Shown here: positions 4,529-47,842 of the stretch, one piece after another | Numbering within the stretch: the stretch's first letter is position 1 | Layout: each line of letters starts with the position of its first letter | DNA from: an uncultured Anaerolineales bacterium | GTDB lineage: Bacteria > Chloroflexota > Anaerolineae > B4-G1 | DNA: 64,000 nt | Direction: 5' to 3' | NCBI GenBank assembly: GCA_964474655.1 | Contig: CAYYTU010000004.1 | Span: forward strand, 2,563-66,562 | Notes under the pieces: model-generated | The model's input: the letters and a program-made list of their open reading frames with translations, nothing else | Told to the model about the DNA's origin: nothing | The model's database searches: none | Made by a program: the position numbers and the translations under genes

Positions 4529-4684
4529 ACTACAACGAGATTTGGAGCTAAACCAGACTTCCGGAATCTGCTTGCTGGGTCACAAATCGACCCAGGACCT
4601 TCTCTTGGATTGAATAGATAGCCAACTGAATGCAAATTTAGAGACTTCGGAAGTCCATCAGGCCGAAACTTCGTTGTAGTATTA
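4529..4684. repeat. Repeat family A, copy A1. About 156-bp non-coding MITE-like element with 11-bp terminal inverted repeats ACTACAACGAG...CTTCGTTGTAGT.
   Basis: Left end ACTACAACGAG at 4529, right end CGTTGTAGTATTAG at about 4671-4685. Internal palindrome GACTTCGGAAGTC at 4643-4655. The same termini recur at 6952, 12828 and 24935. Confidence 0.7.
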
Positions 4685-4714: not shown

Positions 4715-5728
4715 ATGAGCATCAATCAAGTGACGATTATTGAGACTACTCCGTTCAGTGTCTCCATCGCACTGAAGCTAAAGGAGGAGCATGAAGACCT
4801 GACGATCGTGGGGTATAGCGCCGAAGCCGCGGCGGGTGACCTGGTCCGCGCCCAGGGCGTGTTCGATCGCGTGGAACGAGAGCCAGGCCGGGCCTGTGAG
4901 GAAGCCGACATGGTCATTGTGACCACGCCCCTTGAGGCGATTCGAGAGATGTTCGGTGCTATCGCACCGCACCTCCGACCCGGCTGCCTGATCACAGACA
5001 CCGCCGCGCTTAAGGCCCCTGTGGCGCGCTGGGCTGAGGAGATTCTTCCTCAGAACGCCGAGTTCGTCGGCGGACACGTCCTGCTCAATCCGGTCACCGC
5101 CGACCGTTCCAGCTCCTCAGAGGAACCAGGCCCGGCCCGCGCCGATCTGCTGAAGCACGCGCTCTACTGCTTCACCCCTCTGCCAGAGACCTCCGCTGCC
5201 GCGCTCGATACCTGCTCCAACCTGGCCTGGACGCTGGAAGCCTACCCTTTCTTCATCGACGTCACCGAGCACGATGGTCTGGAGGCCGTTAAGGGCTTGA
5301 CCGAACTGGCAGCGGTGGCGTTGCTACGCTCCACCGTGGACTCCCCGGGTTGGCAAGAGATGCGAAAGTTCGCCGGCGAGCACTTCGCGACCACGACGGC
5401 CACGGTCGAGCGAGCCCGCGAGCGCCAGCAGGCGATCCTCCTCAACCGCGAGCATATCGCCCAGCGCATCGACGTGCTTGTGGAGGAGCTGATGCGCTTG
5501 CGGTCTCTGCTCGTCAGCAACGAGGCCGAGAAGCTGGCCGATGTCCTGCTCCAGGCCGCCGAGGGGCGCGAGCGCTGGGTCCAGGCGCGCCAACAAGGAA
5601 TGTGGGGCGATAAAGAGGCTTTCGATATGGAGAACGCGCCAGGTATGGGCGAAAGGTTTACCCGGATGGTCTTCGGCGGCCTCGGCGCCCGTCTGAAAAA
5701 AGCCGCCGGCCGCGATCAGGACGACTAG
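4715..5728 (+). CDS. Prephenate/arogenate dehydrogenase (TyrA) family protein with degenerate N-terminal dinucleotide-binding motif
   Basis: FVGGHVLLNP aligns with TyrA GGHPMAG. HDGLEAVKGLTELAAVALL aligns with TyrA HD...SHLPH. The N-terminus TIIETTPFSVSIALKL lacks a GxGxxG. Confidence 0.5.
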   Translation: MSINQVTIIETTPFSVSIALKLKEEHEDLTIVGYSAEAAAGDLVRAQGVFDRVEREPGRACEEADMVIVTTPLEAIREMFGAIAPHLRPGCLITDTAALKAPVARWAEEILPQNAEFVGGHVLLNPVTADRSSSSEEPGPARADLLKHALYCFTPLPETSAAALDTCSNLAWTLEAYPFFIDVTEHDGLEAVKGLTELAAVALLRSTVDSPGWQEMRKFAGEHFATTTATVERARERQQAILLNREHIAQRIDVLVEELMRLRSLLVSNEAEKLADVLLQAAEGRERWVQARQQGMWGDKEAFDMENAPGMGERFTRMVFGGLGARLKKAAGRDQDD

Positions 5729-5756
5729 CGTCCCTTCATCGGTTCGATCAAGCGCC

Positions 5757-6950
5757 TTGAGCAAGATATACCGCATCTTGATGATCGCTCCTACGTCCTT
5801 CTTTCTGGATTATGGCTGTCACGTCCGCATCCTGGAGGAGGCACGAGCACTCCAGAAGCTGGGCCATCGAGTGACTATCATCACCTACTATCAGGGCCGC
5901 GACCTGCCGGATCTGGAGATCGTGCGCACCCGCCCCACGCCCTGGCGAGCCGACTACGAGGTGGGGTCCTCGCTCCACAAGATTGCCTTCGACATCCTGC
6001 TCTCCTGGACCGGGATGAAAACCGTCCTGCGACATCGCTTCGACATTGTGCACGGTCATCTACACGAGGGTGCGCTCATCGGCTACGCGCTGAGCCAACT
6101 CCGGGGCCTACCGCTGGTGGCGGATTTCCAGGGCAGTATGACCAGCGAGATGGTCGACCACCACTTCCTTGATCCTGACGGGCTGTGGTACTACTGGGCG
6201 CGGCTGCTGGAGCTGCGCATTGCACAAATGCCGGACGTAATCCTGACCAGCACGCAGATGGCCGCCCATATGCTGGACCAGGAGTTCAACTGCAACGCTC
6301 AACAGATCCATCCGCTGCCCGATTGCGTCAATCTGGACTTCTTCCACCCTCAAGCATCCAGTTCCCAGACGATAACCACGTACCGACGCGCCTTGAAAAT
6401 CCCCCCGGGCAGACCGATAGTGGCTTATTTGGGGCTCCTGGCCGATTATCAGGGCACGCCGCTGCTGGTGGAAGCAGCGCAAATCTTGAAGCAGCGTGGG
6501 CTGGACGTGCACTTTCTGATTATGGGATTCCCCGGCGTCTCGCACTACCAGGCCCTGGCCGCCGAGCTGGGCGTGGTCGACCGGGTCACGTTCACGGGAA
6601 AAGTGCCGTATGAAGAAGCCCCGGCCCACCTGGCGCTGGGCGACATCGCCGTAGCGCCCAAGATATCGGAAACTGAGGGCGCCGGCAAGATCCTCAACTA
6701 CATGGCGATGGAGCTGCCTACCGTTGCCTTCGACACGCCGGTCAGCCGGGAGTATCTGGGCAGCCTGGGCACCTACGCCGCGCCGGCAGGCGATTCGGAG
6801 GCGTTGGCCGACGCCATCGCCAGCCTTCTGGAGGACCCACAACGCTGCATCGACCTGGGCCGACGGTTGCGCCAGCGCGTCAGCCGGCACTTCTCCTGGG
6901 ACCGGGCCGGACGGCACCTTTTGAAGATCTATCAAACGATTCTCAACTAA
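5757..6950 (+). CDS. Glycosyltransferase family 4 (group 1 GT)
   Basis: GT-B GT4 signatures: N-terminal GT4 domain and C-terminal EGAGKILNYMAMELPTVAFD. TTG start at 5757; the alternative ATG at 5781 (MIAPTSFF) is equally plausible. Confidence 0.85.
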   Translation: MSKIYRILMIAPTSFFLDYGCHVRILEEARALQKLGHRVTIITYYQGRDLPDLEIVRTRPTPWRADYEVGSSLHKIAFDILLSWTGMKTVLRHRFDIVHGHLHEGALIGYALSQLRGLPLVADFQGSMTSEMVDHHFLDPDGLWYYWARLLELRIAQMPDVILTSTQMAAHMLDQEFNCNAQQIHPLPDCVNLDFFHPQASSSQTITTYRRALKIPPGRPIVAYLGLLADYQGTPLLVEAAQILKQRGLDVHFLIMGFPGVSHYQALAAELGVVDRVTFTGKVPYEEAPAHLALGDIAVAPKISETEGAGKILNYMAMELPTVAFDTPVSREYLGSLGTYAAPAGDSEALADAIASLLEDPQRCIDLGRRLRQRVSRHFSWDRAGRHLLKIYQTILN

Positions 6951-6951
6951 A

Positions 6952-7092
6952 ACTACAACGAGACTTTGACGAGCCTGTCGGAGGGTGCGATTTTCGCCAG
7001 TCGTCATCCTTCGACAGGCTTCGGCGTGAGCTCGGCCGAACGGTTCAGGATGACTATCGAAGGATCAACGTCGTTGAGATCTCATTGTAGAT
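6952..7092. repeat. Repeat family A, copy A2. Abuts the GT4 stop and carries a 13-bp hairpin module shared with A4.
   Basis: ACTACAACGAG at 6952. Internal stem GAGCCTGTCGGAGG...CCTTCGACAGGCTT. The right end CTCATTGTAGATTG is degenerate. About 90 bp is more than 90 % identical to 24950-25045. Confidence 0.65.
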
Positions 7093-7130
7093 TGACTTCT
7101 CTGCACTTTTTAAATTCTTGAGGAGCAGGG

Positions 7131-7287
7131 GCAAACGGAGCGATTCTAGGGTAGCCCAGACACATTAGATTGCCTACAGTCACGTTTATCGAGCGTATCA
7201 ACCCCAGCTTCGTTTGCCTTGTTCACGCTTTAAGGACGCTCTGTGGTCTTGAGGGCATTTTTGCTGAGCGACTTGCTTCGAAATCCC
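7131..7287 (+). repeat. Repeat family B, copy B1 (about 155-bp non-coding interspersed repeat)
   Basis: GCAAACGGAGCGATTCTAGGGTAGCCCAGACACATTAGATTGCCTACAGTCACG...CTTCGAAATCCC. About 95 % identical to 14339-14493. Internal complementary segments GCAAACGnAGC / GCTTCGTTTGC. Confidence 0.75.
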
Positions 7288-7672: not shown

Positions 7673-8488
7673 GTGAAGATAGTCCAACACCTGAAAGAGA
7701 TTTGGCAATATCGAGAGCTGGTCCGTAATCTAGTCGCGCGGGATCTCAAGGTCCGCTACCGCAACTCCGTGCTAGGCGTAGTCTGGTCGTGGGCCAATCC
7801 GCTGCTGATGATGGTGGTTTACACCTTGGTCTTCAATTTCCTGGCCGGGAACGCGAATTTGTCCCACTATCATGTCTTTATCCTGTGTGCCTTGCTGCCC
7901 TGGAACTTCTTCTCCCAGTCAGTGATGGGCGCCATCGGCAGCATCGTCGGCAACGCCCATCTGGTTAAAAAGGTCTATTTCCCCCGGGAGGTGCTTCCCC
8001 TCTCGATCATCTTGTCGAACCTGGTCAATTTTCTGATCGGACTGCCGGTCTTTTTTGGACTGGCTCTGATATCCGGCGCTCCGCTCACGCGCTGGGCGCT
8101 GCTACTGCCGATTCCGATCCTGGTGCAGGTCATCTTCAGCATCGGCATCTGCCTGATCCTCTCCACGCTCAATGTCTTCTACCGCGATACCCAGATCATT
8201 ATGGAAGTCTTGATGATGGCCTGGTTCTTCGTCACGCCCATCTTCTATCCCATCACGCGCGTGCCTCAAGAGGCGGCCATTCGGGGCATCACCTTCAACG
8301 CCCGCCTCTGGCTGCGTCGCTTAAATCCAATGGCCTCTATCATCGCCTCCTACCGCGACTTACTCTACTGGGGGGCGCCAACAGGGCTCGACTTCTTGCT
8401 GCGGACCGCCATCACCGCGTTGATCGTACTGGTCGTGGGCTACCTTATCTTCCTACGCTATAGCCCTCGCTTTGGAGAAGAGGTGTAG
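7673..8488 (+). CDS. ABC-2 type transporter permease (Wzm/TagG/KpsM-like polysaccharide exporter permease)
   Basis: Six-TM ABC-2 signature. The N-terminus WQYRELVRNLVARDLKVRYRNSVLGVVWSWANPLL is characteristic. GTG start preceded by GGGAGGAG. No cognate ATPase gene is adjacent. Confidence 0.85.
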   Translation: MKIVQHLKEIWQYRELVRNLVARDLKVRYRNSVLGVVWSWANPLLMMVVYTLVFNFLAGNANLSHYHVFILCALLPWNFFSQSVMGAIGSIVGNAHLVKKVYFPREVLPLSIILSNLVNFLIGLPVFFGLALISGAPLTRWALLLPIPILVQVIFSIGICLILSTLNVFYRDTQIIMEVLMMAWFFVTPIFYPITRVPQEAAIRGITFNARLWLRRLNPMASIIASYRDLLYWGAPTGLDFLLRTAITALIVLVVGYLIFLRYSPRFGEEV

Positions 8489-8494
8489 ACCAGG

Positions 8495-11053
8495 TTGCCA
8501 GTGAGCACACCCACAAGCGAATCTGGAAGAAGGGAGCGCCGATTCGCCGAGGTGATCGTCTTCTCGCCGGCCAAGGCATCGGAGAAGAAACCAGCCTTCA
8601 CGTACCATATCCCGGACGATCTGAGGAGCCAGCTGGAGGTCGGTTCGCTCGTCGTAGTGCCCTTTGGGCCGCGACGACTCTACGGACTCGTGGTCGCCCT
8701 GGGCGACGAATCACCCGTGCCAGAGACGCGTCCGGTCGGCTCACTGGTCGATCCTCAGCCTGTCCTCACACAGGAACAAATCGCGCTGGCCCGTTGGATA
8801 GCGCACGAATACCTGGCCCCGCTCCACGAATGCTTGGAATTGATGCTGCCGCCGGGATTGGTGGGCCACGCTGACGTACGGGTCAGTCTCCAGCACGACC
8901 GGCTGGAGGAGGCCGCCAACACCGAGGCCCAGGCCAGATTGCTGGCGGTGCTCCAGCGACGCGGGCCGCTGCGCGGCGCTCAGCTCGATCGCGCTCTGTC
9001 CGATATCGACTGGCGCCCGGCTTCCGAGCAGCTGGCTCGCCGGGGGATCGTCAGCCGCGAATCATTCCTGGCTCCGCCCAACGCCTCCCCCAAGCGCGTG
9101 CGCACCGTCCAGCTCGTTCCCTCGGTCGACGAGCAATCTGCGCTGGAAGGCCTGCGCAGCGATCGCTACCCACTCATTCTTGATATGTTACGGGTCGCCG
9201 ATGGGCCGGTGGCCGTCAAGCGGGTCTACGAGGAGACCGACGCCAGCCGCTACCACCTGAACAAGCTGGAGGAGCGCGGTGTGGTCACCTTCGGCAGCCA
9301 GGAGGTCTGGCGTGATCCGCTTTCCGATGTCTTCTTCGTGCCCACGGACCCGCCGCCGCTCACGCCAGACCAGGAGGTGGTCTGGACGGCCATTCGCTCC
9401 GCTGTAAAAGAGCCGGAAAGGAAGCCTGTGCCCTTTCTGCTCCACGGCGTGACCGGCTCCGGCAAGACTGAGATCTACCTCCGCGCCGTGGCCGAGGTTC
9501 TGGAGCAGGGCCAGAAGGCAATCGTACTTGTGCCGGAGATATCGCTGACGCCGCAGACCGTGGCGCGTTTCGCCGGGCGCTTCCCAGATCGCGTCGCCGT
9601 CCTCCACAGCGCTCTCACCGACGGAGAACGTTATGACACCTGGCGTCGCGCCCGAGCTGGCTTGGTCGATATCGTCGTTGGACCGCGCTCGGCGCTCTTC
9701 GCCCCGCTCTCGCCGCTAGGGCTGATCGTGTTGGACGAAGAGCATGACGACAGCTACAAGCAAGAGGCCCCGCGCCCCCGCTACCACGCCCGCGACACGG
9801 CGGTCGAGATGGCTCGCCTGAGCGACGCGACCGTCATCCTGGGTTCCGCCACGCCCAGCCTGGAATCATACCACCGGGCTCGAGAAGAGAAATTTACCTT
9901 GCTGGAGATGCCACGCCGCATTATGGGTCACACCCGCCGTCTGCAAGAGCTCCAGGCCCGTCACCACCTGGCTCATTCGCGCTACCGAGCGCTGACCGAG
10001 GGGGCTGCCGAGGCGCGTTACCTGCCCCTGCCGCCGGTGAAAATCGTCGATCTGCGTGCCGAGCTCCACGCTGGCAATCGCTCTATCTTCAGCCGCGCCC
10101 TCCAGAAGAAGATGGACCAGGCGCTGGAACGAGGGGAACAGGCGATCCTTTTCCTCAACCGGCGGGGGAGCGCCACCTTCATCCTCTGCCGTGATTGTGG
10201 GCACGTGATGGAATGTCCCCGCTGCGACACGCCGCTGACCTATCACGGTCACCAGGACCGTCTGGTCTGCCATCACTGCAACCACCGTGAGCCTCAACCC
10301 AAGCGTTGCCCATCGTGCGGCAGCCGACGCATTCGCTACTTTGGCCTGGGCACTGAGCAGCTGGAAGACGCCGTGCGGAAGCGTTGGCCCGAGGCGCGTC
10401 TGTTGCGCTGGGATAGAGATACGGCCCACACCCACGAGGCTCATACCAATATCATGAATCGCTTCGCCAGCGGCGCGGCCGACGTGCTCGTGGGGACGCA
10501 GATGATCACCAAGGGGCTGGATCTGCCGTTGGTGACCGTGGTGGGTGTCATCTCGGCCGACACGGCGCTCAATTTGCCGGACTTCCGCGCCAGCGAGCGC
10601 ACGTTCCAGCTGTTGGCCCAGGTAGCGGGCCGCGCCGGGCGCGGCCTGTTGGGCGGGCACGTTATCATCCAGACGTACCACCCCGATCATTACGCCGTCG
10701 AGGCCGCTGCCGAGCACGACTACGAGGCCTTTGCCCAGGAAGAGCTGGCTTTCCGCCGCGCGCAAGGCTATCCTCCCTATCGCCGGCTGGCCAAGCTGGT
10801 CTACGAAGATACCGACTTTCACCGCGCCCAGGCCCGCGCCGAGGCACTGGCCCAGGATTTGAGCAAGTTGCTGACGCAACGCCATCTTCCCGCCACGGAC
10901 CTGATGGGGCCTGTGCCGCCTTTCTTCGCCCGGCTGCGGGGACGCTACCGCTGGCAGATCTTGCTGCGACACCCAGATCCCCCAGCGCTCCTTGAGGCAG
11001 TCGATATTCCGCCGGGCTGGCACGTGGAAGTCGACCCAGTCAGCGTCCTGTAG
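8495..11053 (+). CDS. priA: Primosomal protein N' (replication restart helicase PriA)
   Basis: Walker A LHGVTGSGKTEIY, DEEH box, Cys4 zinc-binding CRDCGHVMECPRCDTPLTYH...CHHCNH...CPSCGS, and helicase C domain. TTG start as in the track. Confidence 0.95.
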   Translation: MPVSTPTSESGRRERRFAEVIVFSPAKASEKKPAFTYHIPDDLRSQLEVGSLVVVPFGPRRLYGLVVALGDESPVPETRPVGSLVDPQPVLTQEQIALARWIAHEYLAPLHECLELMLPPGLVGHADVRVSLQHDRLEEAANTEAQARLLAVLQRRGPLRGAQLDRALSDIDWRPASEQLARRGIVSRESFLAPPNASPKRVRTVQLVPSVDEQSALEGLRSDRYPLILDMLRVADGPVAVKRVYEETDASRYHLNKLEERGVVTFGSQEVWRDPLSDVFFVPTDPPPLTPDQEVVWTAIRSAVKEPERKPVPFLLHGVTGSGKTEIYLRAVAEVLEQGQKAIVLVPEISLTPQTVARFAGRFPDRVAVLHSALTDGERYDTWRRARAGLVDIVVGPRSALFAPLSPLGLIVLDEEHDDSYKQEAPRPRYHARDTAVEMARLSDATVILGSATPSLESYHRAREEKFTLLEMPRRIMGHTRRLQELQARHHLAHSRYRALTEGAAEARYLPLPPVKIVDLRAELHAGNRSIFSRALQKKMDQALERGEQAILFLNRRGSATFILCRDCGHVMECPRCDTPLTYHGHQDRLVCHHCNHREPQPKRCPSCGSRRIRYFGLGTEQLEDAVRKRWPEARLLRWDRDTAHTHEAHTNIMNRFASGAADVLVGTQMITKGLDLPLVTVVGVISADTALNLPDFRASERTFQLLAQVAGRAGRGLLGGHVIIQTYHPDHYAVEAAAEHDYEAFAQEELAFRRAQGYPPYRRLAKLVYEDTDFHRAQARAEALAQDLSKLLTQRHLPATDLMGPVPPFFARLRGRYRWQILLRHPDPPALLEAVDIPPGWHVEVDPVSVL

Positions 11054-12827: not shown

Positions 12828-12947
12828 ACTACAACGGGATTTCAACGGAGTTGATCTCTCGATAGTGATCCTGAACTTATCGAAGGATCACGACTTGGCG
12901 AAGATCGTACCTTTCGACAGGCTCGTCAGAGTCTCGTTGTAGTATTA
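12828..12947. repeat. Repeat family A, copy A3 (120 bp)
   Basis: ACTACAACGGG at 12828 and GTCTCGTTGTAGTATTA at about 12931-12947. Confidence 0.65.
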
Positions 12948-14270: not shown

Positions 14271-14338
14271 ACCTCCTCCATAAAATCAGAATAGCGGCTA
14301 ACCTCGTCTCTCAATCGCCAAACACGTCGCTTAAGCGG

Positions 14339-14493
14339 CAAACGAAGCGATTCTAGGGTAGCCCAGACGCATTAGATTGCCTACAGTCACGTTTATCGAG
14401 CGCATCAACCCCAGCTTCGTTTGCCTTGTTCGCGCCTAAGCACGTTCTGTGGCCTTGAGGGCATTTTTGCTGGGCGACCTGCTTCGAAATCCC
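14339..14493 (+). repeat. Repeat family B, copy B2, inserted between the anti-sigma gene and the downstream membrane-protein gene
   Basis: About 95 % identical to B1 (7131-7287). It ends exactly at the stop of the 14494..15018 gene. Confidence 0.75.
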
Positions 14494-21829: not shown

Positions 21830-23767
21830 TCACACGTCCAGGTTGCGTACCTGTTTGGCGTGGGTCTGGATGAAGTGGCGTCGAGGCGGCACGCTGGAAC
21901 CCATCAGCATGCTGAAGGTCCGATCGGCCGCTGCAGCGTCTTCGATTGTCACGCGCAACAGCGTGCGATTCTCCGGGTTCATCGTCGTCTCCCAAAGCTG
22001 CTCCGGATTCATCTCACCCAACCCCTTGTAACGCTGGAGCGAGACCCGCCGTCCGTCTAGCTCCTGCAAAATTCTCGCCCGCTCCGCCTCCGAGTATGCA
22101 TAATGCTCCTCGCGCCCAGCCTTGATCAAGTAAAGGGGAGGCTGTGCGATGTACAGGTGTCCTTCCTCAATGAGCGGCTGCATATAGCGATAGAAGAAGG
22201 TTAGAAGCAACGTGCGAATGTGAGCGCCGTCGATGTCGGCATCGGTCAGCAGAATCACCCGCCCGTAGCGCAGGCCGTCCAGGCTGAACTGCCCGCCGAC
22301 GCTGGTGCCCAGGGCGGAGATTAGCGCCTGCACCTCCTTGTTCTTGAGGATGCGGTTCAGCCCCGCTCGCTCCGTGTTTAGGATCTTGCCGCGCAGGGGC
22401 AAGATGGCCTGGAAATGCCGATCGCGTCCTTGCTTGGCACTGCCGCCGGCGCTATCTCCCTCCACGATGAAGAGTTCCGAACGCGCCGCTTCCTGCTCCG
22501 AGCAATCGGCCAGCTTGCCCGGCAGGGTCAAGCTTTCCAGCGTGCTCTTGCGGATCACCAGATCACGAGCCTTACGGGCCGCTGCCCGCGCGCGGAAAGA
22601 GGTGAGACACTTGCGGATGATGTTCCGCGCGGCCGCCGACTCTCGCTCCAGAAACTCGGAGAGCGCCCGGGTGACCACCGATTCGACCATCCCTCGTACC
22701 TCGGCGTTCATCAGCTTCACCTTCGTCTGGCTCTCGAACTGGGGGTCCGGGTGCTTGACGCTGACGATGGCCGTCAACCCCTCGCGCACATCCTCGCCGG
22801 AGAAGTTAGGGTCTCTGTCTCTGAGCTTGCCCGTCTTGCGAGCATACTCGTTCATCGTGCGAGTCAATCCAGAACGGAGCCCCGTCAGGTGTGAACCGCC
22901 GTCCACAGTGTGGATCGTGTTGGCGAAGGCATAGATGGACTCGGCGTAAGATTCAGTGTACTGGAGTGCAACCTCAATCCCCACCCCGTCCTCATCCGAC
23001 TGGATATAGATCACCTCATCGTGAAGCACCTCGCGGTTGCGATTAAGATAGCGCACGAATGAAGCGATCCCCCCCTCAAAGTAGAAGGTCATATCCCGCG
23101 GGAAAGGCTGCTCTCGCTCATCGACCAGTCGGATAGAAACCTCGCTGGTGACGAAGGCCATCTCCCGCAATCTTTGCATCAGCGTATCGTAATCAAAATC
23201 CACGTCCTCGAAAATCGTACGGTCAAAGCGGAACGTGACGCGCGTGCCGCGCCCCTCAGCAGCGCCGATATCCTCTACCGGCGTGACGGGGGTTCCCTTT
23301 TCGTACCGCTGGCGGTAGCGGCGACCATCACGGGGGTTATCGATCACCACCTCCAACCACTCGGAGAGCGCATTGACAGCCGCCACACCCACACCGTGCA
23401 GTCCGCCGGAGACCTTGTAGCCGTCTCCACCGAACTTCGCTCCGGAATGGAGGCTCGTCATCACCAGCTCCAGGGTTGAGATGCCCTTTTCTGGATGGCG
23501 GGCGGTGGGAATGCCACGCCCATTATCCGCCACCGTGACCGAGGAATCGGCATGGATGATAATTTCGATGCTGTCACAGAGCCCCACCAGGGCCTCGTCA
23601 ATCGCGTTGTCGACCACCTCGTATACCAGGTGGTGCAACGCCCGCAGATCCGTGCCGCCGACGTACATACCGGGCCGGCGGCGGACGGCTTCCAGTCCCT
23701 CCAATACCTGAACGTCATCCGCTTCGTAACGGCCAATCTGACTCATAGCCCTATGCATCACAATCAC
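21830..23767 (-). CDS. gyrB: DNA gyrase subunit B
   Basis: [43 protein letters not shown] (GHKL ATPase), TOPRIM and C-terminal domains. About 640 aa. GTG start in GTGA overlap with the upstream gene. ATG 23758 or 23746 are alternative starts. Confidence 0.93.
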
Positions 23768-24789
23768 ACATCCCCATCAGTAACTGACGCACGTCCAATC
23801 GCGTCCACCAACCTGTCGCGATAAAACATAAAAATCGCTGCCAATACGCCGCCTGCAATGGCGCCGTTGCCCAGGATACCAACCAACAACAACCACGAAT
23901 CGCCGTCCGGGAGCGACCAAGCGTAGCCCAGGCCCTTGTAAATCACCAATCCCAATCCCACCAACCCTAGCACTGAGGGCAGTTGCGCGTGGCTTAACAC
24001 CACACTTTCCCAGACCGCTTGCACCAGACCGCGCCCCCCGATCAGAATGCTGGGAATCACGAATATCAGGTGGAGCGCCAGGTAGATGGTCAACGCCACC
24101 CCCATTACCCAAACCAACACTCCGATCGGCTCCGCGATCAGCATGGCAATTCCCATCAGCAAAAACCAAAACAAAGCGAATATCGCCCAGATCAGAAGCA
24201 GGCCTACCTCGAATAGTAAGAGGCGAAGTATCTTCCACAGGCCCCTATGCATCCCCCGCGCTTCCTCTGGTCGCTCGGGCTTTTTCTGGCCAATCAACCC
24301 TTCGGCGATCGCCATCCGACTGGCTAACTCGTTGAGGTAGAACCCTCCCAGCACCAGCCCTGCCAAAAGCAATCCCAGCCACCAGGGGATAAAAGTCAAG
24401 ACGCTCGTGATGGAGAAGACACGCGGAGAGCTCAGCGGTGAGACCGGGCCAATATGGTATTGCGCCAGCAGACTGGGCACTTGTACCATCGGTAAGCTGC
24501 CCAGAAGCGAGACCAGGTTAAACTGCTGTCCAAACTCCTCCAACAGCCGAACGGCTTGCGCGGCCTGTTGGGCCATATCTGGATTGGCGGATGCCTGCGC
24601 CTCAAACAGAGCGGAAAATCGCTGCAATAATGGAGCCACCGACAGCCTCGGGCCCAACCAGAGCAAGAGATCCAACAAAGCCGGTACCGCCGCCAGATCC
24701 AGGTTTCGACTCAAAACCTCAAATCCAGCCGTCAAACAACCGATCACCCCGCGGGGAGCGCTCGTCTCTTCTGCTCTTCTTAATTTCAT
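23764..24789 (-). CDS. Hypothetical polytopic membrane protein, translationally coupled to gyrB
   Basis: Multiple hydrophobic helices, no recognisable motif. Four-nt overlap with the gyrB start. Confidence 0.5.
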
Positions 24790-24828
24790 ACGAGCCTATA
24801 TTATACCACGACTTGAAAGGGCGGTAAA

Positions 24829-24863
24829 CCTGTCGGTGCTTTGGAACTGCTCCGTTTGCCCCC
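24829..24863. repeat. Repeat family B, truncated fragment B4
   Basis: CCTGTCGGTGCTTTGGAACTGCTCCGTTTGCCCC matches the B3 terminal module, with an internal deletion. Confidence 0.5.
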
Positions 24864-24934
24864 AATCAGATTGACTTTACCGCGTAGACATCTTGGCGTA
24901 TAATATCGCCTTGCATAGATCATGCAACTTATGA

Positions 24935-25218
24935 CTACAACGAGGCTTTGACGAGCCTCTCGAAGGGTGCGATTTTCGCCAAGTCGTCATCCTTCGACAG
25001 GCTTCGGCGTGAGCTCAGCCGAATGGATCAGGATGACTATCGATTGGACTTTGGACAAAGCTCGCAAGACCTTCCCGAAAGCTTTCAGAAGTGGTGAAGC
25101 TAGCCGAAAACTTTTTAGACTGTTCGTTTCAACTTTCGGGAAGGTTCTCAGCAGAGATCTAAGTTTTATCCAAAGTCCAGTATTGAGAGTCAACTTTGTT
25201 GAAACCTCGTTGTAGCAT
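24935..25218. repeat. Repeat family A, copy A4 (284 bp, the longest copy). Carries the A2-type hairpin module plus an extra AT-rich segment.
   Basis: ACTACAACGAG at 24935 and CCTCGTTGTAGCATTA at 25203-25218. Internal stem GAGCCTCTCGAAGG...CCTTCGACAGGCTT. The track ORFs 24967..25215(+) and 24987..25193(-) lie wholly inside it. Confidence 0.65.
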
Positions 25219-25247
25219 TATGAGATGGTACTAAGGAGGTTATGTTG

Positions 25248-26426
25248 ATGGATCTGTTCGAGAAGTGTCGGGCCTTTACCGAGGCGCGAGAGGCACAAGA
25301 GACGGGCATCTACCCATATTTCATCCCCTTGACCGATAGTGAGGGCACAGAAGTTACCGTGGGCGATCATCGCCTGATTATGATCGGCTCCAACAACTAC
25401 CTGGGGCTGACCACTCACCCCAAAGTTCGGCAAGCTGCGATCAAAGCCACCGAAGAATACGGCACCAGCTGTACCGGGTCGCGGTTCCTCAACGGCACGC
25501 TGGAGTTCCACCTGGAGCTGGAGCGCAATCTGGCAGATTTTATGGGCACAGAAGCGGCGCTGGTCTTCCCCACCGGCTACCAGACTAACGTAGGCACCAT
25601 CTCGTCCCTGGTGGGCCGGCACGATGTCGTGATCACAGACAAGGACGACCACGCCAGTATCGTAGACGGCTGCAAGATGTCCTACGGGACCGTACGACGT
25701 TTCAATCACAACGATATGGACCACCTGGAGCGTGTGCTGGCCCACCTGGATGACGACGTGGGCAAGCTGGTCGTCGTGGATGGCGTCTTCAGCATGGGCG
25801 GCGACCTTGCCCCCCTGCCGGAGATCGTATCACTATGCCAGAAGTACGACGCCCGTCTGATGGTGGACGATGCCCACGCTGTGGGCGTTGTGGGGGGCGG
25901 ACGGGGCACGGCCGCCCACTTTGGCCTCGTCAACGAGGTGGACCTGATTATGGGTACCTTCAGCAAGTCCTTCGCCAGCCTGGGCGGATTCATCGCCGGC
26001 GCCGACGACGTGGTTCATTACGTCCAGCACCACGCTCGTTCCCTGATCTTCAGCGCCAGCATGTCGCCCTCCAACACCGCGGCGGCCCTGGCAGCGCTGG
26101 AGGTGATGCAAGAGGAGCCAGAGCGCATCGAGCGGGTCAACGACATCGCCGAGTACATGCGCACCGAGTACCGCCGGATGGGCTTCAACGTCGGCAACAG
26201 CCAGACCCCTATCATTCCCATCATCATCGGCGACAACGACCTTACCTTTATGACGTGGAAAACACTCTACGAGGCCGGACTCTACACTAACCCTGTCATC
26301 TCCCCGGCGGTGCCCCCGGAGATGTCGCTGCTGCGCACCAGCTACATGGCCACCCACACCGACGAACATCTGGAGCGTGTGTTGGCGACGTTCAAACAAG
26401 TAGGCGACGCTCTGGGTCTGATCTAG
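25248..26426 (+). CDS. Alpha-oxoamine synthase family PLP enzyme, most similar to serine palmitoyltransferase (SPT-like; KBL/BioF family member)
   Basis: GSNNYLGL, GSRFLNGT, DDAHAVGVVGGGRG, and GTFSKSF containing the PLP-lysine. The GTFSKS, GSRxLNGT and C-terminal LLRTSYMATHT motifs resemble Sphingomonas SPT more than E. coli KBL or BioF (comparison from memory). RBS AAGGAGG sits 8 nt upstream of ATG 25248. Confidence 0.8.
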   Translation: MDLFEKCRAFTEAREAQETGIYPYFIPLTDSEGTEVTVGDHRLIMIGSNNYLGLTTHPKVRQAAIKATEEYGTSCTGSRFLNGTLEFHLELERNLADFMGTEAALVFPTGYQTNVGTISSLVGRHDVVITDKDDHASIVDGCKMSYGTVRRFNHNDMDHLERVLAHLDDDVGKLVVVDGVFSMGGDLAPLPEIVSLCQKYDARLMVDDAHAVGVVGGGRGTAAHFGLVNEVDLIMGTFSKSFASLGGFIAGADDVVHYVQHHARSLIFSASMSPSNTAAALAALEVMQEEPERIERVNDIAEYMRTEYRRMGFNVGNSQTPIIPIIIGDNDLTFMTWKTLYEAGLYTNPVISPAVPPEMSLLRTSYMATHTDEHLERVLATFKQVGDALGLI

Positions 26427-26443
26427 CGAATCATCAGGAGGAT

Positions 26444-26683
26444 ATGATGCCGCTTTACGAATACAAATGTTCCGATTGTGAGACGAAGTTCGACGCCCTG
26501 CGGGATATGTCCGAGGCCGATGCCCCGATTGCCTGTCCCCACTGCGGCAGCGAGGAGACGCAGCGGGCCGTCTCGCTCTTCTCCGCCATCGGCAGCGAGG
26601 GCGTTGTGATCGGCGACAATTCTTGCGCCTCCTGCTCGCCGTCGGCATCCTGCGCCACATGTGGAGCCCGCTCGTCGCATTAG
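26444..26683 (+). CDS. FmdB family zinc-ribbon protein
   Basis: MPLYEYKCSDCETKFDAL...CPHCGS, the canonical FmdB N-terminus, plus a Cys-rich tail. RBS CAGGAGGA. Confidence 0.8.
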   Translation: MMPLYEYKCSDCETKFDALRDMSEADAPIACPHCGSEETQRAVSLFSAIGSEGVVIGDNSCASCSPSASCATCGARSSH

Positions 26684-26730: not shown

Positions 26731-27846
26731 ATGACTGATCAGACCATAACATCGGTCTTCCCGTTTACGGCGATTGTGAACCAGGCGCGTATGAAACGCG
26801 CCCTGATCCTGAACGCGATCCACCCCAAAATCGGCGGCGTGCTGATCCGCGGCGAGCGCGGCACGGCTAAATCCACCGCGGCCCGGGCGCTGGCGGCCCT
26901 ATTGCCAGAAATCGAAGTGGTCGCCGATTGCTCCTTCGGTTGCGACCCCGATCGCCCTTCCACCTGGTGCACCGAATGTCAGGATCGCAGCCAGGGTGAG
27001 AACCCGTTACCACGCGCTCGCCGCCGCACCCAATTCGTGGATCTCCCCGTCAGCGCGACCGAGGACCGGGTCGTGGGCACGCTGGATATCGAGCGGGCCA
27101 TCCAGGAGGGCGAGCGACACTTCGAGCCGGGCGTGCTCGCCGCCGCCAATCGCGGCGTGCTCTACGTGGACGAGGTCAACCTGCTGGACGATCACGTCGT
27201 CGATCTGCTGCTCGACGCGGCCGCGATGGGCGTCAACGTGGTGGAGCGCGAGGGCATCTCCTTCAGCCATCCGGCCCGCTTCATCCTCATCGGCACGATG
27301 AACCCGGAGGAGGGCGATCTGCGCCCGCAGCTGCTCGACCGCTTCGCGCTCTGCGTCGACATTCGGGGTATTCGCGATCCCGACGCGCGAATGCTGATTA
27401 TGGAGCGGAACCTGGCCTTTGATGCGGACCCACAGGCCTTTCGCGCGGCCTGGGCCGGGCGCGAGCAGGAACTCTCCCGTGAGATCGCGCGGGCCCGGCA
27501 GCTGCTACCTGAGATGCAGCACACACGCTCGGATCTGGCTACCATCGCGACGATGATGGCCGATCTGGGCGTCGATGGGCATCGCGCCGATTTGGTGGTG
27601 CTCAAGGCCGCTCGGACGCACGCAGCGTTCGATGGGCGTCGGCACCTGACCGATACCGATATCCTGCTGGCGGCTGAACTGGCGTTGCCGCACCGGCTGA
27701 AGCGCCACCCGCTGGAGGAGACGGAGGTCACGCTAGATGATCTCTCTGAGCGGCTGAACGAAGTCCGCGCCCAGGCCCAGCGTAGCGAGCCGCACGAGGC
27801 AGAGAACAGTGAGCCGGTCGAGGTCGCCGGTAAAAAAAAAGCATAG
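26731..27846 (+). CDS. Mg-chelatase subunit I-like AAA+ ATPase (ChlI/BchI family)
   Basis: FPFTAIVNQARMKRALILNAIHPKIGGVLIRGERGTAKST (Walker A), Walker B VLYVDEVNLL. The ORF ends ...VAGKKKA* inside an A9 run. Confidence 0.9.
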   Translation: MTDQTITSVFPFTAIVNQARMKRALILNAIHPKIGGVLIRGERGTAKSTAARALAALLPEIEVVADCSFGCDPDRPSTWCTECQDRSQGENPLPRARRRTQFVDLPVSATEDRVVGTLDIERAIQEGERHFEPGVLAAANRGVLYVDEVNLLDDHVVDLLLDAAAMGVNVVEREGISFSHPARFILIGTMNPEEGDLRPQLLDRFALCVDIRGIRDPDARMLIMERNLAFDADPQAFRAAWAGREQELSREIARARQLLPEMQHTRSDLATIATMMADLGVDGHRADLVVLKAARTHAAFDGRRHLTDTDILLAAELALPHRLKRHPLEETEVTLDDLSERLNEVRAQAQRSEPHEAENSEPVEVAGKKKA

Positions 27847-27893: not shown

Positions 27894-28805
27894 ATGCAAA
27901 GTCCAGCCCAGCAGATCATCCCCCAGTGGCCGTCGTCGGGGCGTTGGTGGGAAGGCGGCGAGCAGACTGCCTTCGGCGAGCCCTTCGATCCTCGTCACCT
28001 GGAGACGCCCCTCGACCGCCTGACCCGCTCCACCGGCGGGCGCCGCAGCGAGACTCGCACCGATCGCAAACGCGGGCGCTACGTCCAATCGCGCCCCTCG
28101 CCGGACGATGCCAGCGACTTGGCCTTCGACGCCACGCTCCGCGCCGCCGCGCCCCACCAGAAAACACGCCAGGAAGATGGCGGCCCGGCCCTGGTGCTGT
28201 ACCCCGCCGACTTTCGCCGCAAGGTGCGCGTGAGCCGCGCGGCCAATCTGATCCTCTTCGTCGTCGATGCCTCCTGGTCGATGGCCGTGGCGGAGCGAAT
28301 GGAGGCCACGAAAGGCGCCGTCGTCTCGCTGCTGACCGACGCCTACCAGCGGCGCGACCGGGTGGGGCTGGTTGTCTTTCAGAAGAACGATGCGCTCGTG
28401 GTGCTGCCGCCCACCAATAGCGTCGCGCTGGCCAAGCGGACGCTGAACGATATCCCCATCGGCGGGAAGACGCCGCTTTCCGCTGGACTAAAAACCTCGT
28501 ACGAGCTCATCACCCGCGAGATCCGTCAACATCCCGATCTCAAGCCGCTGATGGTGCTGCTCACCGACGGAGCGGGCAATGTCTCAATGACAAACCGCCC
28601 GCCGCAGGAAGAGGCTTATCGCATGGCGGAGCTCTTCCCACAGGCCGACATCCGTTCGCTGGTGATCAATATGGAGAACGAGGCCTTCGATCAGGGGCTA
28701 GCGCAGACGTTGGCCGATCATCTGGAGGCGCCGTGCTACACGCTGGCCGACTTGCGGGCTGAGTCGCTGCTGTGGACGGTGCGCGGGGCGCTCGATGAGG
28801 GTTAA
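27894..28805 (+). CDS. ChlD/BchD C-terminal-half-like protein with vWA domain
   Basis: LAFDATLRAAAPHQ and LILFVVDASWSM (MIDAS DxSxS) match the ChlD linker and vWA. The same frame is open upstream through an acidic, Pro-rich stretch to the A9 tract at 27832-27840. Confidence 0.85.
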   Translation: MQSPAQQIIPQWPSSGRWWEGGEQTAFGEPFDPRHLETPLDRLTRSTGGRRSETRTDRKRGRYVQSRPSPDDASDLAFDATLRAAAPHQKTRQEDGGPALVLYPADFRRKVRVSRAANLILFVVDASWSMAVAERMEATKGAVVSLLTDAYQRRDRVGLVVFQKNDALVVLPPTNSVALAKRTLNDIPIGGKTPLSAGLKTSYELITREIRQHPDLKPLMVLLTDGAGNVSMTNRPPQEEAYRMAELFPQADIRSLVINMENEAFDQGLAQTLADHLEAPCYTLADLRAESLLWTVRGALDEG

Positions 28806-28996: not shown

Positions 28997-29020
28997 CCCC
29001 CGTCTGATTGGGGGCTTTTT
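28997..29020 (+). terminator. Intrinsic terminator downstream of the vWA gene
   Basis: CCCCC-gtctgatt-GGGGG followed by CTTTTT. Confidence 0.6.
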
Positions 29021-29061: not shown

Positions 29062-29892
29062 TTAGAGCAGGTCGTAATTCCGTATCAGGATCTGCTCGAA
29101 GAGCCGGTCGGGCACGATATCCTTGAGCGCGGCGGCCAACTTCTGATCGAAGGAACCGACGCGATAGCGGATCTTGGGCGAGGGATGCTCGATGATGCGC
29201 TCCAGTAGCCGGGCTACGCGCTCTGGCGGGACGCCGTTGCGTTCGTCCTCTTCGATGATGGTCATCATTCGCTCGCAGCTCTCCTCGTAAACGGAGCCTC
29301 GGGCGCCGGCAACCCGGTGGCGGTTGTCGACGAAGGGGGTGCTGATATCGCCCGGTTCGAGCAGCACCACGTCGATGCCGAACGGACGAACCTCCATCCG
29401 CATCGCATCGGTCATCCCCTCCACGGCGAACTTAGTGGCGCTATAGAATGCCTGGAAGGGCAGGGCAATCAACCCGCCGATCGAGCTGACATTCACGATG
29501 AGCCCGCTCCTCCGGGCTCGCATCGCCGGCAGCACGGCCCTACAGACCCGTAGCACGCCGAAGAAATTCGTCTCGAACAAGGCCTTGGCCTCCTCCACGG
29601 TCGTATCCTCCACCGCCCCGGCGATCCCATATCCGGCGTTGTTCACCACCACGTCCAGAACTCCCGCTTCTTGCAGGATGAAGTCCACGCCACGCCGGAC
29701 TGATTCATCGTGATTGACGTCCATCTGGAGCATCGCGACGGAGCCGGGTGTGGATATCTCTGGCGGGAAGGGTGCGCGTCGGCTTGTCCCGAATACCTGA
29801 TAGCCTTGCCGGGCCAGATGCTGGGCGCACGCTTTGCCAATCCCGGAGGACGCGCCGGTGATCAGGATCACTTGGTCACAGGAGTCACTCAT
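29062..29892 (-). CDS. Short-chain dehydrogenase/reductase (SDR) family oxidoreductase
   Basis: TGASSGIG cofactor motif, NNAG, and YSATKFAVEG (YxxxK). Confidence 0.9.
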   Translation of the reverse strand: MSDSCDQVILITGASSGIGKACAQHLARQGYQVFGTSRRAPFPPEISTPGSVAMLQMDVNHDESVRRGVDFILQEAGVLDVVVNNAGYGIAGAVEDTTVEEAKALFETNFFGVLRVCRAVLPAMRARRSGLIVNVSSIGGLIALPFQAFYSATKFAVEGMTDAMRMEVRPFGIDVVLLEPGDISTPFVDNRHRVAGARGSVYEESCERMMTIIEEDERNGVPPERVARLLERIIEHPSPKIRYRVGSFDQKLAAALKDIVPDRLFEQILIRNYDLL

Positions 29893-30040: not shown

Positions 30041-30268
30041 CTAGAAGTCGAAGCTCTGTCCCAATGCGACGACGTTGGTCGCTCGCAAGCCCTTGGGGCC
30101 CTCCTCCACGTTGAACTCGACGCGCTGACCTTCGTTCAACGTCCGGAAGCCCGAACCTTCGATCGCGGAGTAATGGACGAAGACATCGTCCCCCCCTTCG
30201 CGCGAGATAAAGCCATAGCCTTTATCATTGCTGAACCACTTGACGGTTCCCGTTTCTTTTTCTGCCAT
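30041..30268 (-). CDS. Cold-shock protein (CspA family)
   Basis: [36 protein letters not shown], with RNP1/RNP2 motifs. Start taken at ATG 30268. Confidence 0.9.
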
Positions 30269-30493
30269 CAGAAACATACTCCTTTAACTAAAATGGTTTT
30301 ATGGGCTGGAGCGGCTAAGAGGGCAGCTACAAAACTACCCAGGTGATGCCAAGCCCAGGTAGCTTCACCACCACAACACTTACCGCTTCCTGCAATAAAA
30401 CTTTACCATGTGACGCTTCAGATGTCAAGCTAATTTCTTGAGGCGAGAGAGGAAACGATTGGCAGTGCGCGGTTCGTCAGGTATAATCTGCTT

Positions 30494-31469
30494 GATGGGT
30501 ATCTCGGTCGTCGCCACGGTGTTGAACGAAGCGCGAAGCTTACCCCGCTTGCTGGACAGCTTATCCGCCCAGATCCGCCAGCCGGACGAGGTGGTCATCT
30601 GTGACGGCGGCTCTACTGACGGCACGCTAGCGTTGCTGGAGGCCGAGGATCGCTTCCCGTTGCGTCTCATCAGCCGACCCGGGGCCAACATCTCACAGGG
30701 TCGCAACGCAGCCATCGCGGCTGCCAAAGGCGAGCTGATCGCAGTGACTGACGCCGGTGTGCGCCTAAGCTCCAACTGGCTGGACGCTCTCGTGACTCCG
30801 CTGGAAAATGACCAGGCGCAAGTGGTGGCCGGCTTCTTCCGGCCCGATCCGCATACCGTCTTTGAGGTCGCCATGGGGGCCACCGTGCTCCCCGAGATGC
30901 GCGATATTCGCCCGGAGCACTTCCTGCCCTCTAGTCGCTCCGTCGCTTTCCGGAAGGCCGCCTGGGTGGCCGTCGGCGGCTATCCTGAGTGGCTCGATTA
31001 TTGCGAGGATCTGATCTTCGATTTCCGCCTGCGCGATTGTTGCGGCCCCTTCGCCTTCGCGCCGGAAGCGTTGGCCTATTTCCGCCCCCGGCCCAGCCTG
31101 CGGGCATTCTTCGTCCAGTATTATCGCTACGCCCGCGGTGACGGCAAGGCCGATCTATGGCGCAAGCGTCATGCCATCCGCTACCTGACGTACCTGATCG
31201 CCACCCCGCTGATCGCCCTCGCCGGCCTGTTGAGGCACCCCGGGTGGTGGGCGCTCTATCTGATCGCCATTCCCGGTATGCTCTGGGTGCCCTGGCGGCG
31301 TCTGACGGGTCTCTGGGATGCTCTTCCTTCTGCGCAAAAGCTAAAGGCGGCGCTGTGGGTACCCGTGATCCGGGTCACGGGCGATGTAGCCAAGATGATC
31401 GGCTATCCGGCTGGTCTATGGTGGCGCTGGCGCCATCGGGACCAGGTGCCAGATTGGCGCGAGCTCTGA
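30494..31469 (+). CDS. Glycosyltransferase family 2 with C-terminal TM helices
   Basis: ISVVATVLNEARSLPRLLDSL...VVICDGGSTDGT (GT2 DxD-type). Start taken at MGISVV. Confidence 0.85.
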
Positions 31470-46000: not shown

Positions 46001-46780
46001 GTGTTTGATTTTATAGCCTATCCCTTAGCTAACTTGTTGCTTCTTTTTTACAACTTTCTGGGCCACCAAACGGTCGTCGCCATCGCCGTGCTGACGATTC
46101 TGATCCGACTTCTCATCTTGCCCTTGACGCTAGGCCAACAACGATCAGCACAGAAGATGCGCGAGCTACAACCAGAGATCGACAAACTGCGCGAAAAATA
46201 TAGCGACAATCAGGAGAAACTGGCCGAGGAGCAAATGAAACTCTGGCGAGAGGCCGGGGTAAACCCAGCGGGTGGGTGCCTGCCAGTCCTGATCCAGCTA
46301 CCGATTATGATCGGACTCTATCGGGCCATCACTTACTGCGTGCCATCCACCCCTTTGCAGCTGTTCCAATTCTCCCAAAATATCTACAAATGGCTACCGG
46401 GCATCGAAGGGTTGGTACCGTTGCAAAGCACATTCCTGGGCGTAGACCTGGGCCAGCCGCCCAGCCCCGACCAATGGTGGTCATACGCGCTACCGTTGCT
46501 GGCCTTCGTCACCTCCTGGCTACAGCAAAAGATGTTGAGCCCCACGATGTCCGGAGGCTCCGGCGATGGACAGTCGCAGACAGAGATGATGACCCAACAG
46601 ATGCAGATTATGATGCCCTTGATGTTCGGGTTCATCGCCCTCCAATATGCAACCGGGCTCTCCTTTTACTTCATCATCTCCAACCTGGTGGGGATAGCGC
46701 AATACTACTTCATCAATAACTCACAAGAGGAAAGCCCTTCTGATCCAAAACCGCAGCGGCGAAAGCCTCCCAAGCAATAG
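46001..46780 (+). CDS. yidC: Membrane protein insertase YidC/Oxa1 (short form)
   Basis: GCLPVLIQLPIMIGLYRAI and the C-terminal YYFISNLVGIAQ. 259 aa, five TM. GTG start. Confidence 0.9.
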   Translation: MFDFIAYPLANLLLLFYNFLGHQTVVAIAVLTILIRLLILPLTLGQQRSAQKMRELQPEIDKLREKYSDNQEKLAEEQMKLWREAGVNPAGGCLPVLIQLPIMIGLYRAITYCVPSTPLQLFQFSQNIYKWLPGIEGLVPLQSTFLGVDLGQPPSPDQWWSYALPLLAFVTSWLQQKMLSPTMSGGSGDGQSQTEMMTQQMQIMMPLMFGFIALQYATGLSFYFIISNLVGIAQYYFINNSQEESPSDPKPQRRKPPKQ

Positions 46781-46912
46781 ATCACTCCCCGAAACGGCCC
46801 CCAGCCTCGCAGGGAGCTAACCCAGTTCGCTCGGGGGCCTCAGCTGAAAGATTTTTTCGGCAATAGATTCATTATTGATTCGCGTTGAGCGATTGTCGGA
46901 GGAGAACAGTCG

Positions 46913-47809: not shown

Positions 47810-47842
47810 GCGCACAGACCGTGACGGGGGCGAGCAATCTTT

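Follow-up and report, generated by a model that had tools for sequence, protein, structure and literature searches.

The 64-kb stretch of DNA analysed here (the window; contig CAYYTU010000004.1 of an uncultured Anaerolineales bacterium, phylum Chloroflexota) carries a gene for a pyridoxal 5'-phosphate (PLP)-dependent alpha-oxoamine synthase (AOS). A gene for an FmdB-family zinc ribbon and a pair of ChlI- and ChlD-like genes follow it on the same strand. We consider it likely, from comparisons of profiles, structures and conserved residues, that the synthase gene encodes a soluble, stand-alone serine palmitoyltransferase (SPT) of the Bacteroidota (Sphingobacterium) type. A sequence-only reading of the same DNA had already proposed that the enzyme resembles bacterial SPT more than KBL or BioF, with the FmdB and ChlI/ChlD-like genes lying after it, and both proposals are borne out below. 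Table 1 lists the features of the locus and its surroundings.

Table 1. Features of the window discussed in the text (L numbers denote loci of related genomes; SDR, short-chain dehydrogenase; vWA, von Willebrand factor type A; GT2, glycosyltransferase family 2)
Feature	Coordinates	Strand	Size	Remarks
Alpha-oxoamine synthase, predicted SPT	25248..26426	+	392 aa	PLP lysine K240; predicted from profiles, structures, tree and residues
FmdB-family zinc ribbon	26447..26683	+	78 aa	Alternative start at 26444 would give 79 aa; TIGR02605, PF09723
ChlI-like AAA+ ATPase	26731..27846	+	371 aa	47-nt gap after FmdB gene; TIGR02442 515 bits (cut-off 779), TIGR02030 431 bits (cut-off 467)
ChlD-like vWA protein	27894..28805	+	303 aa	47-nt gap after ChlI-like gene; C-terminal half of TIGR02442, 268 bits; Pfam VWA_2/VWA
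Terminator-like hairpin and T-run	28997..29014	+		Consensus scan only; between the convergent ChlD-like and SDR genes
SDR	29062..29892	-	276 aa	Weak candidate for a 3-ketosphinganine reductase; NF049977 (KdsR) 311.2 bits (cut-off 400)
Cold-shock-domain protein	30041..30277	-		PF00313 102 bits; between SDR and GT2 genes; same position in L001 and L096; no pathway assignment
GT2 glycosyltransferase with C-terminal membrane region	30438..31469	+		PF00535 74 bits; adjoins the SDR gene in L001, L027 and L096
Polytopic membrane protein	23764..24789	-	341 aa	No family match; divergent from synthase gene; conserved in L096
Promoter-like site	24876..24904			About 340 nt 5' of synthase gene
Palindromic element	24935..25215		281 nt	Just 5' of synthase gene
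Element with the same inverted ends	4530..4679		150 nt
Further repeat copy	6952..~7090			6952..7060 is 94-95% identical to 24934..25043
Further repeat site	12933..12942
Second dispersed repeat	7127..7287 and 14334..14493		~160 nt	Intergenic; copies 91-95% identical

Family assignment of the synthase

In the list of open reading frames with their translations, the frame at the synthase locus spans 25242..26426 (394 codons). Translation almost certainly begins with the ATG at position 25248, since the sequence AAGGAGG lies 8 nt upstream and since an identical database protein (P0001) and most homologs have 392 residues. The sequence-only reading had thus delimited the two-gene layout correctly (25248-26683), but its length of 393 residues for the synthase is one too many. 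Between the window and the relative L096 (85% nucleotide identity), substitutions in the synthase gene number 18, 4 and 136 at codon positions 1, 2 and 3, and this predominance of third-position changes indicates strong purifying selection. An Rfam scan of the upstream region (24700..25300) gave no riboswitch match. The predicted structure of the synthase was poor (mean predicted local distance difference test score 53.3, predicted template modelling score 0.47; alignment of 26 homologs, 78-96% identity).

Membership of the AONS/KBL/SPT/ALAS family of fold-type I PLP enzymes, which the sequence-only reading had claimed, is clear. Pfam PF00155 (class I/II aminotransferase domain) matches with 193.5 bits, and the PLP lysine, the His/Asp/His set and the C-terminal Arg are all in place. 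Within the family, we set NCBIfam scores against the curated cut-off of each model. The top family, 141 bits clear, was NF047600 (SerpalmtaseCFB, SPT of the CFB group), an equivalog model with a cut-off of 640 bits, which the synthase matches with 538.8 bits. Behind it came the BioF/Kbl-related TIGR01825 (397.3 bits, cut-off 535.4), SPT-beta (396.2, cut-off 500), BioF TIGR00858 (392.5, cut-off 426.45), KBL NF005394 (364.6, cut-off 460), SPT-alpha (326.6, cut-off 670), KBL TIGR01822 (293.2, cut-off 493), ALAS (256.5, cut-off 338.55) and CqsA (213.3, cut-off 428). None of these cut-offs was reached, that of NF047600 included; the synthase homolog in L085 (564.8 bits with NF047600) likewise stays below 640 bits.

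Solved structures gave the same ranking at the top. The best match was the SPT of Sphingobacterium multivorum (SmSPT; 3a2b/8guh) with 423 bits and 48% identity, and the bifunctional AONS/KBL of Thermus (ThAOS) came second with 285 bits. Sphingomonas SPTs scored 276-279 bits, KBLs 228-245 bits, cysteate acyltransferases 228-232 bits (7U7H, 28EH; compared by bit score only and absent from the tree) and BioF about 201 bits. Over the trimmed alignment, the synthase is 48% identical to SmSPT, 40% to ThAOS, 33% to E. coli KBL and 32% to E. coli BioF.

A neighbour-joining tree (25 sequences, 390 columns, Kimura distances, 300 bootstraps) included references from PDB alignments (SmSPT, the S. wittichii SPT (SwSPT) and ThAOS) and from annotated records (E. 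coli Kbl and BioF, Ralstonia and Parabacteroides Kbl, BioF from the bio operon of Azospirillum, and Ruegeria HemA). A further reference was a Roseomonas AOS encoded beside an acyl carrier protein (ACP) in a lipid gene cluster. The Chloroflexota synthases form one clade with 100% bootstrap support. This clade groups with SmSPT, SwSPT, the ACP-linked Roseomonas enzyme and a plasmid-borne homolog from Priestia at 72%, and support for the SPT grouping reaches 93% once a Bacteroides plasmid paralog is counted in. KBL together with ThAOS, BioF and HemA all lie outside it. The sequence-only reading had proposed such a tree as a check and had named a firm position within the KBL or BioF clades as evidence to the contrary; the synthase is found instead with characterised SPTs, outside KBL, BioF and ALAS.

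The roles of the active-site residues of SmSPT have been defined by crystal structures (PMC10196870). The window synthase has the same residue at N49 (N52 in SmSPT), along the loop G77-S78-R79-F80-L81-N82 (G80...N85), and at H135 (H138), S182 (S185), D207 (D210), A209 (A212), H210 (H213), T237 (T241), S239 (S243), K240 (K244), F268 (F272) and R363 (R367). The sole change in this set is I267 in place of M271, of which SmSPT uses only the backbone carbonyl (PMC10196870). Five of these residues (H135, D207, H210, K240 and R363) align with every reference AOS. In contrast, the loop Asn (N82, in GSR-x-L-NGT) is found in the reference set only in characterised SPTs and in sequences grouping with them; the corresponding residue is Cys in KBL, Ser or Cys in BioF, Ser in ALAS and Ala in ThAOS. 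The lysine motif differs as well, being GTFSKS in the SPT group and GTLGKA in KBL. The synthase carries both SPT-type motifs, the GSR-x-(L/A)-NGT loop with its Asn and GTFSKS. All three motifs quoted in the sequence-only reading are present: GTFSKSF (with K240), GSRFLNGT (residues 77-84) and LLRTSYMATHT.

Genes linked to the synthase in the window and in related genomes

One genome per species was scanned for relatives of the synthase, which are encoded in at least 478 species genomes. Neighbourhoods were compared at 81 species-level loci. The best 80 of the 478 relatives share 64-84% identity and come from metagenome-assembled genomes (MAGs) of Anaerolineales, Thermoflexales, Caldilineae and Ardenticatenales, plus two labelled Dictyoglomota. 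Homologs of about 80% identity number in the hundreds, those with names being Anaerolineae or Chloroflexi MAGs. The gene is single-copy and core-like, and no biosynthetic cluster surrounds it.

The closest homolog found outside Chloroflexota (L087) lies on a mobilizable plasmid of Priestia megaterium (NZ_CP137804.1, 8001..9215). It is 52% identical and has a loop of SPT type (GSRFLNGS); next to it are genes for a methyltransferase, a YvaD-family protein and a membrane protein of an acyltransferase family. Such a gene would not have been expected in a relative of Bacillus.

In 13 of the 81 species-level loci, an SDR resembling the eukaryote-type 3-ketosphinganine reductase (KDSR) is encoded near the synthase. 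It directly adjoins the synthase gene on the same strand in 9 of the 13 (gaps of 18-168 bp), and in L007 its start lies 12 bp past the synthase stop. JGI names this family '3-dehydrosphinganine reductase'. Its members share 37-43% identity over 210-276 residues with human KDSR, and the sequence PPDTDTP, in a comparison that serves as a lead and not as a test.

In L001, L011, L029 and L030, the KDSR-like gene is encoded beyond ChlD, on the other strand. Exactly this slot is taken in the window by a different SDR, 2.6 kb downstream of the synthase gene on the opposite strand, which the sequence-only reading did not mention. The 96%-identical relative L096 has an SDR of the window type in the same slot. 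Identity between the window SDR and the KDSR-like type is only 35%, and the shared position is suggestive of a replacement of the KDSR-like enzyme in the window lineage, with the reductase assignment itself weak. Its best profile is NF049977 (KdsR), a model presumably built around Bacteroides BT_0972; the runner-up, PRK06182, scores 274 bits where its cut-off is 305. The window SDR belongs to a broad family, being 60-62% identical to SDRs of Archaeoglobus and Thermoplasmatales and 41-47% to rhizobial 'oxidoreductases'. A PDB search with both SDR types returned generic SDRs only; to our knowledge, no KDSR structure exists.

The GT2 glycosyltransferase encoded beyond the window SDR has a secondary match to PF13506 (GT21, the ceramide glucosyltransferase family). 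Its 22.6 bits barely exceed the gathering score of 21.7. The match is thus only marginal, and a role as ceramide glycosyltransferase is kept here as speculation.

KBL is usually paired with tdh. Consistent with the sequence-only reading, which had noted no bioA, bioB, bioD or tdh adjacent to the synthase gene, Pfam and NCBIfam scans of the larger open reading frames found none of them in the entire window. Neither the window nor the 80 related species loci gave a match to BioB or BioD, and just two BioA-like aminotransferases turned up, several kb off. The synthase thus shows neither the curated score nor the tdh or bioA/bioB/bioD context of a KBL or BioF.

A 408-aa zinc alcohol dehydrogenase is encoded just downstream of the synthase homolog in L058 (11263..12489, minus strand), L085 (11837..13063, minus strand) and L086. 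Tdh is the best family for those of L058 and L085, but they score 137-152 bits where the cut-offs are 380 and 458. We rejected these genes as evidence for KBL, the two that were scanned being far under the Tdh cut-offs; they could encode another reductase that acts on the keto product, or have no connection with it.

No ACP gene was found in the window or the 80 related species loci by tblastn with the spt-linked ACP of Roseomonas, a search of limited power as ACPs are short and divergent. Pfam and NCBIfam scans of the neighbouring open reading frames gave no ACP domain either, and the gene arrangement of ACP-dependent SPTs is accordingly not seen.

The most common neighbour of the synthase among the compared species-level loci is FmdB. 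The window protein, with its YKCSDCE...CPHCGS ribbon and a Cys/Ser-rich tail, belongs to this family by both TIGR02605 (67.1 bits, cut-off 31.3) and PF09723 (59.5 bits, cut-off 34.4). Substitutions relative to the close relative fall mainly at third codon positions (4, 6 and 23 at positions 1, 2 and 3), which indicates that the frame is coding on the plus strand. Its gene begins 20 nt after the synthase stop and is probably co-transcribed with it. An FmdB gene lies within 600 bp of the synthase gene on the same strand in 28 of the 71 species-level loci with enough flank. It follows the synthase gene in 20 of them and precedes it in 8, so that the linkage survives changes of gene order.

In 15-20 related loci, the synthase-FmdB pair is directly followed, on the opposite strand, by a gene for an uncharacterised protein of about 270 aa (for example, 11610..12443 in L001 and 11739..12545 in L006, both on the minus strand). 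The protein has a single membrane helix, at its N terminus, matches neither Pfam nor NCBIfam families, and is absent from the window.

The synthase, FmdB, ChlI-like and ChlD-like genes look like a single four-gene transcription unit, judging from their layout. ChlI/ChlD genes come after the synthase in 12-13 of 87 loci, all of closer relatives, which leaves a place for them in the lipid pathway unsupported; the pair probably represents lineage-specific synteny. The two genes are split in the window and fused in L001 (12773..14836), where the 687-aa product passes the cut-off of TIGR02442 ('putative cobaltochelatase'). The window holds no open reading frame of CobN/ChlH size, so the ChlI/ChlD pair appears to be an orphan.

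More widely, the window includes gyrB, yidC, jag, parA and parB (coordinates 21830..23767 and 46001..50406) as well as clpB, dnaK-grpE-dnaJ, prfA and prmC, and in L001 dnaA (7831..9213) lies directly 5' of the synthase homolog. The presence of gyrB, yidC, jag, parA and parB, together with dnaA in L001, places the synthase in an origin-proximal core region. In about 2.4 kb of sequence past the left end of the window, nothing relevant was found. The polytopic membrane protein gene beside the synthase has a stop that shares 4 nt with the start of gyrB, and translational coupling of these two genes is suggested by this overlap.

The 281-nt element in front of the synthase gene has 14-nt inverted ends (CTACAACGAGGCTT / AAACCTCGTTGTAG) and nested inverted repeats. 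Folded as RNA, the element has an energy of -121 kcal/mol (z = -8.5 versus shuffles), and it has no Rfam match. The 10-mer CTACAACGAR is found 6 times where 0.17 are expected. Together with this and with the related copies of Table 1, the element looks like a member of a dispersed palindromic repeat family, similar to miniature inverted-repeat transposable elements or repetitive extragenic palindromic sequences.

The close relative L096 lacks this repeat segment. A gene for a 488-aa TldD/PmbA protein (5608..7074) lies there between the 342-aa membrane protein and the synthase, at the place of the 458-bp intergenic region of the window (24790..25247) that holds the repeat. The two loci thus differ by an insertion or deletion at the synthase promoter region. 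The second dispersed repeat of the window is unrelated to the CTACAACGAG element.

Proposed reaction and alternative readings

The family of the synthase, its nearest relatives, its conserved residues and the linkage of its gene are shown by the comparisons above. For the serine and acyl substrates, the reductase of the window genome and all later steps, we infer a route that follows established AOS/SPT chemistry. PLP would be bound as a Schiff base on K240. L-serine would displace the lysine to form the external aldimine, with H135 anchoring its carboxylate and the G77-S78 loop and N49 organising a water network. A long-chain acyl thioester would then bind, probably acyl-CoA because no partner ACP gene was found, and decarboxylative Claisen condensation would release CO2 and yield 3-ketodihydrosphingosine. 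An NADPH-dependent SDR would reduce this product to a sphinganine-type long-chain base. The reductase would be the adjoining KDSR-like SDR in many relatives and possibly the SDR of Table 1 in the window genome. N-acylation of the long-chain base by a further enzyme would give ceramide.

A broader model, which we regard as unlikely, is that Anaerolineae possess an old and conserved two-gene SPT-FmdB module, in which FmdB would be a dedicated partner of the synthase, acting as a regulator, small subunit or membrane-targeting factor. The module would be combined with a reduce-first route, as in eukaryotes and Bacteroides, via a eukaryote-type KDSR that some lineages, including that of the window, would have swapped for an unrelated SDR.

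SPT-like genes of Chloroflexota have been predicted before. In the study of Ding et al. 2024 (ISME J, PMC11334938), Black Sea metagenomes were searched with known Spt, bCerS and CerR, and a tree of 2666 representatives was built. Spt-like proteins were reported there in 1271 MAGs from 38 phyla, including 218 Chloroflexota, whose proteins share a clade with known SPTs. The view of the sequence-only reading that SPT is uncommon outside a few bacterial groups is therefore outdated. In the same study, deep-water ceramides, Gly-ceramides and Lys-ceramides correlate with Marinisomatota and Anaerolineae, and the authors suggest that Spt may use other amino acids. A follow-up study came to the same for sediments and calls for culture studies (PMC12619533).

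Several points weigh against assigning the window gene to serine palmitoylation and ceramide synthesis. With the synthase under the 640-bit equivalog cut-off of NF047600, the rule of NCBI would not call it SPT, and we do not file it under that family. The tree is small and distance-based, and its key SPT node has only 72% support. The link of Anaerolineae with Gly- and Lys-ceramides implies that the amino-acid substrate may not be serine alone. Sphingolipid synthesis is not known from Bacillota, and the SPT-like gene in Priestia indicates that the subfamily extends beyond known makers of sphingolipids and may include other specificities. The window SDR family is also archaeal and rhizobial, which leaves the reductase step in the window genome weakly supported. 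No acyltransferase candidate, and none for bCerS or CerR, was found in the 64 kb of the window by general Pfam/NCBIfam scans of the larger open reading frames, which included no bCerS query. Finally, we found no published culture or enzyme evidence for sphingolipids in isolates of Chloroflexota or Anaerolineae.

Among the alternatives, the one that survives best, unlikely as we judge it, keeps the enzyme in the SPT clade as a long-chain AOS that prefers glycine, alanine, lysine or cysteate, with a 1-deoxy, lysine-derived or sulfonated long-chain base as product. Alanine and glycine are also used by SmSPT, though inefficiently (PMC10196870), yet every SmSPT residue that contacts serine, directly or via water, is identical in the window synthase. 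An AOS paired with an SDR is also the logic of sulfonolipid (capnine) synthesis (PMC11211663). Cysteate acyltransferases, however, score just 228-232 bits where SmSPT scores 423, and the linked SDR family resembles the sphinganine-forming KDSR. The unreached SPT cut-off and the correlation of Anaerolineae with Gly- and Lys-ceramides besides ceramides (PMC11334938) also speak for this alternative.

It is considerably less probable that the gene encodes a short-chain housekeeping enzyme (KBL, BioF or a Thermus-like bifunctional enzyme) whose SPT-like features reflect shared ancestry only. Wide and strong conservation in the class and the origin-proximal housekeeping neighbourhood would suit such a role, as would 392.5 bits with the BioF model (cut-off 426) and 40% identity to the Thermus enzyme. 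However, the scores stay below the curated cut-offs of BioF, both KBL models and TIGR01825, and KBL, ThAOS and BioF fall outside the tree clade of the synthase. The loop and lysine motifs are of SPT type and not of KBL type (SVRFICGT, GTLGKAL) or BioF type. Moreover, neither the window nor any of the 80 related species loci has tdh or bio genes nearby, the Tdh-like dehydrogenases at three loci are not Tdh, and what recurs beside the synthase is a KDSR-like reductase.

A specialised amino-ketone natural product or signal instead of a membrane lipid, as might be imagined from the plasmid-borne Priestia homolog beside tailoring-type genes and from the inclusion of CqsA and other secondary-metabolite enzymes in the AOS family, is very improbable for a single-copy, core-like gene that keeps 64-84% identity across orders, has no biosynthetic cluster and scores lowest with CqsA-type models.

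Comparison with known systems

The preferred reading, a stand-alone SPT, does not make the synthase a new kind of prediction, because Spt-like genes across Chloroflexota were already flagged by Ding et al. The window gene is one of the hundreds of Anaerolineae Spt-like genes predicted at metagenome scale, and its predicted function is ordinary and well supported, not a discovery. In the literature that was searched, we found no mention of two features: in relatives, the synthase is often paired in an operon-like manner with a 3-ketosphinganine reductase of eukaryote type, and an FmdB zinc-ribbon gene adjoins it in many lineages. The apparent in-place replacement of the KDSR-like reductase by another SDR in the window lineage is a modest further addition. 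Anaerolineae rank with the most abundant bacteria of anoxic sediments, of digesters and of the deep Black Sea. If the synthase is a working SPT, much of the bacterial ceramide in the environment would come from them, a proposal that Ding et al. made from metagenomes.

KBL, BioF and the Thermus AONS/KBL (1FC4, 1BS0, 7POA) share the fold-type I PLP family and the catalytic His/Asp/His/Lys/Arg set with the window synthase. They differ in their loop and lysine motifs, are 32-40% identical and lie outside its clade.

The ACP-dependent SPTs of Alpha-, Beta- and Gammaproteobacteria (Sphingomonas, Caulobacter; 2JG2, 2X8U; NF047603, NF047599) have the reaction class, the loop Asn and the tree clade in common with the window synthase, but they are only about 38% identical to it. 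Their genes adjoin those of a dedicated ACP and an acyl-CoA synthetase (PMC9386255); in the Roseomonas locus, the SPT-like gene likewise lies beside an ACP gene.

On the reductase side, the systems to compare are KDSR/FVT1/TSC10 and Bacteroides BT_0972 (KdsR, NF049977; PMC9278070). The SDR of the relatives resembles human KDSR, and KdsR is the profile that fits the window SDR best, with 311 bits where the cut-off is 400. The published studies consulted describe no SPT-linked KDSR in Bacteroides, whereas the Anaerolineae relatives link the synthase to FmdB and a KDSR-like SDR. We found no published mention of a KDSR-type reductase in Chloroflexota.

The 'clade B' Chloroflexota Spt-like proteins of Ding et al. 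belong to the same class, Anaerolineae, and lead to the same inference as the window synthase. The pathway markers used there are bCerS and CerR only, and the text consulted makes no mention of the linkage to KDSR-like or FmdB genes seen at the present loci.

The nearest characterised counterpart is SmSPT (3A2B, 8GUH; NF047600). The two differ in host (Bacteroidota for SmSPT, Chloroflexota here), in the Ile that replaces M271 and in the score of the window synthase, which is under the equivalog cut-off. They are alike in being stand-alone soluble proteins of about 395 residues with no ACP partner gene, and in sharing GSRFLNGT, GTFSKS and the N-terminal YxYF motif.

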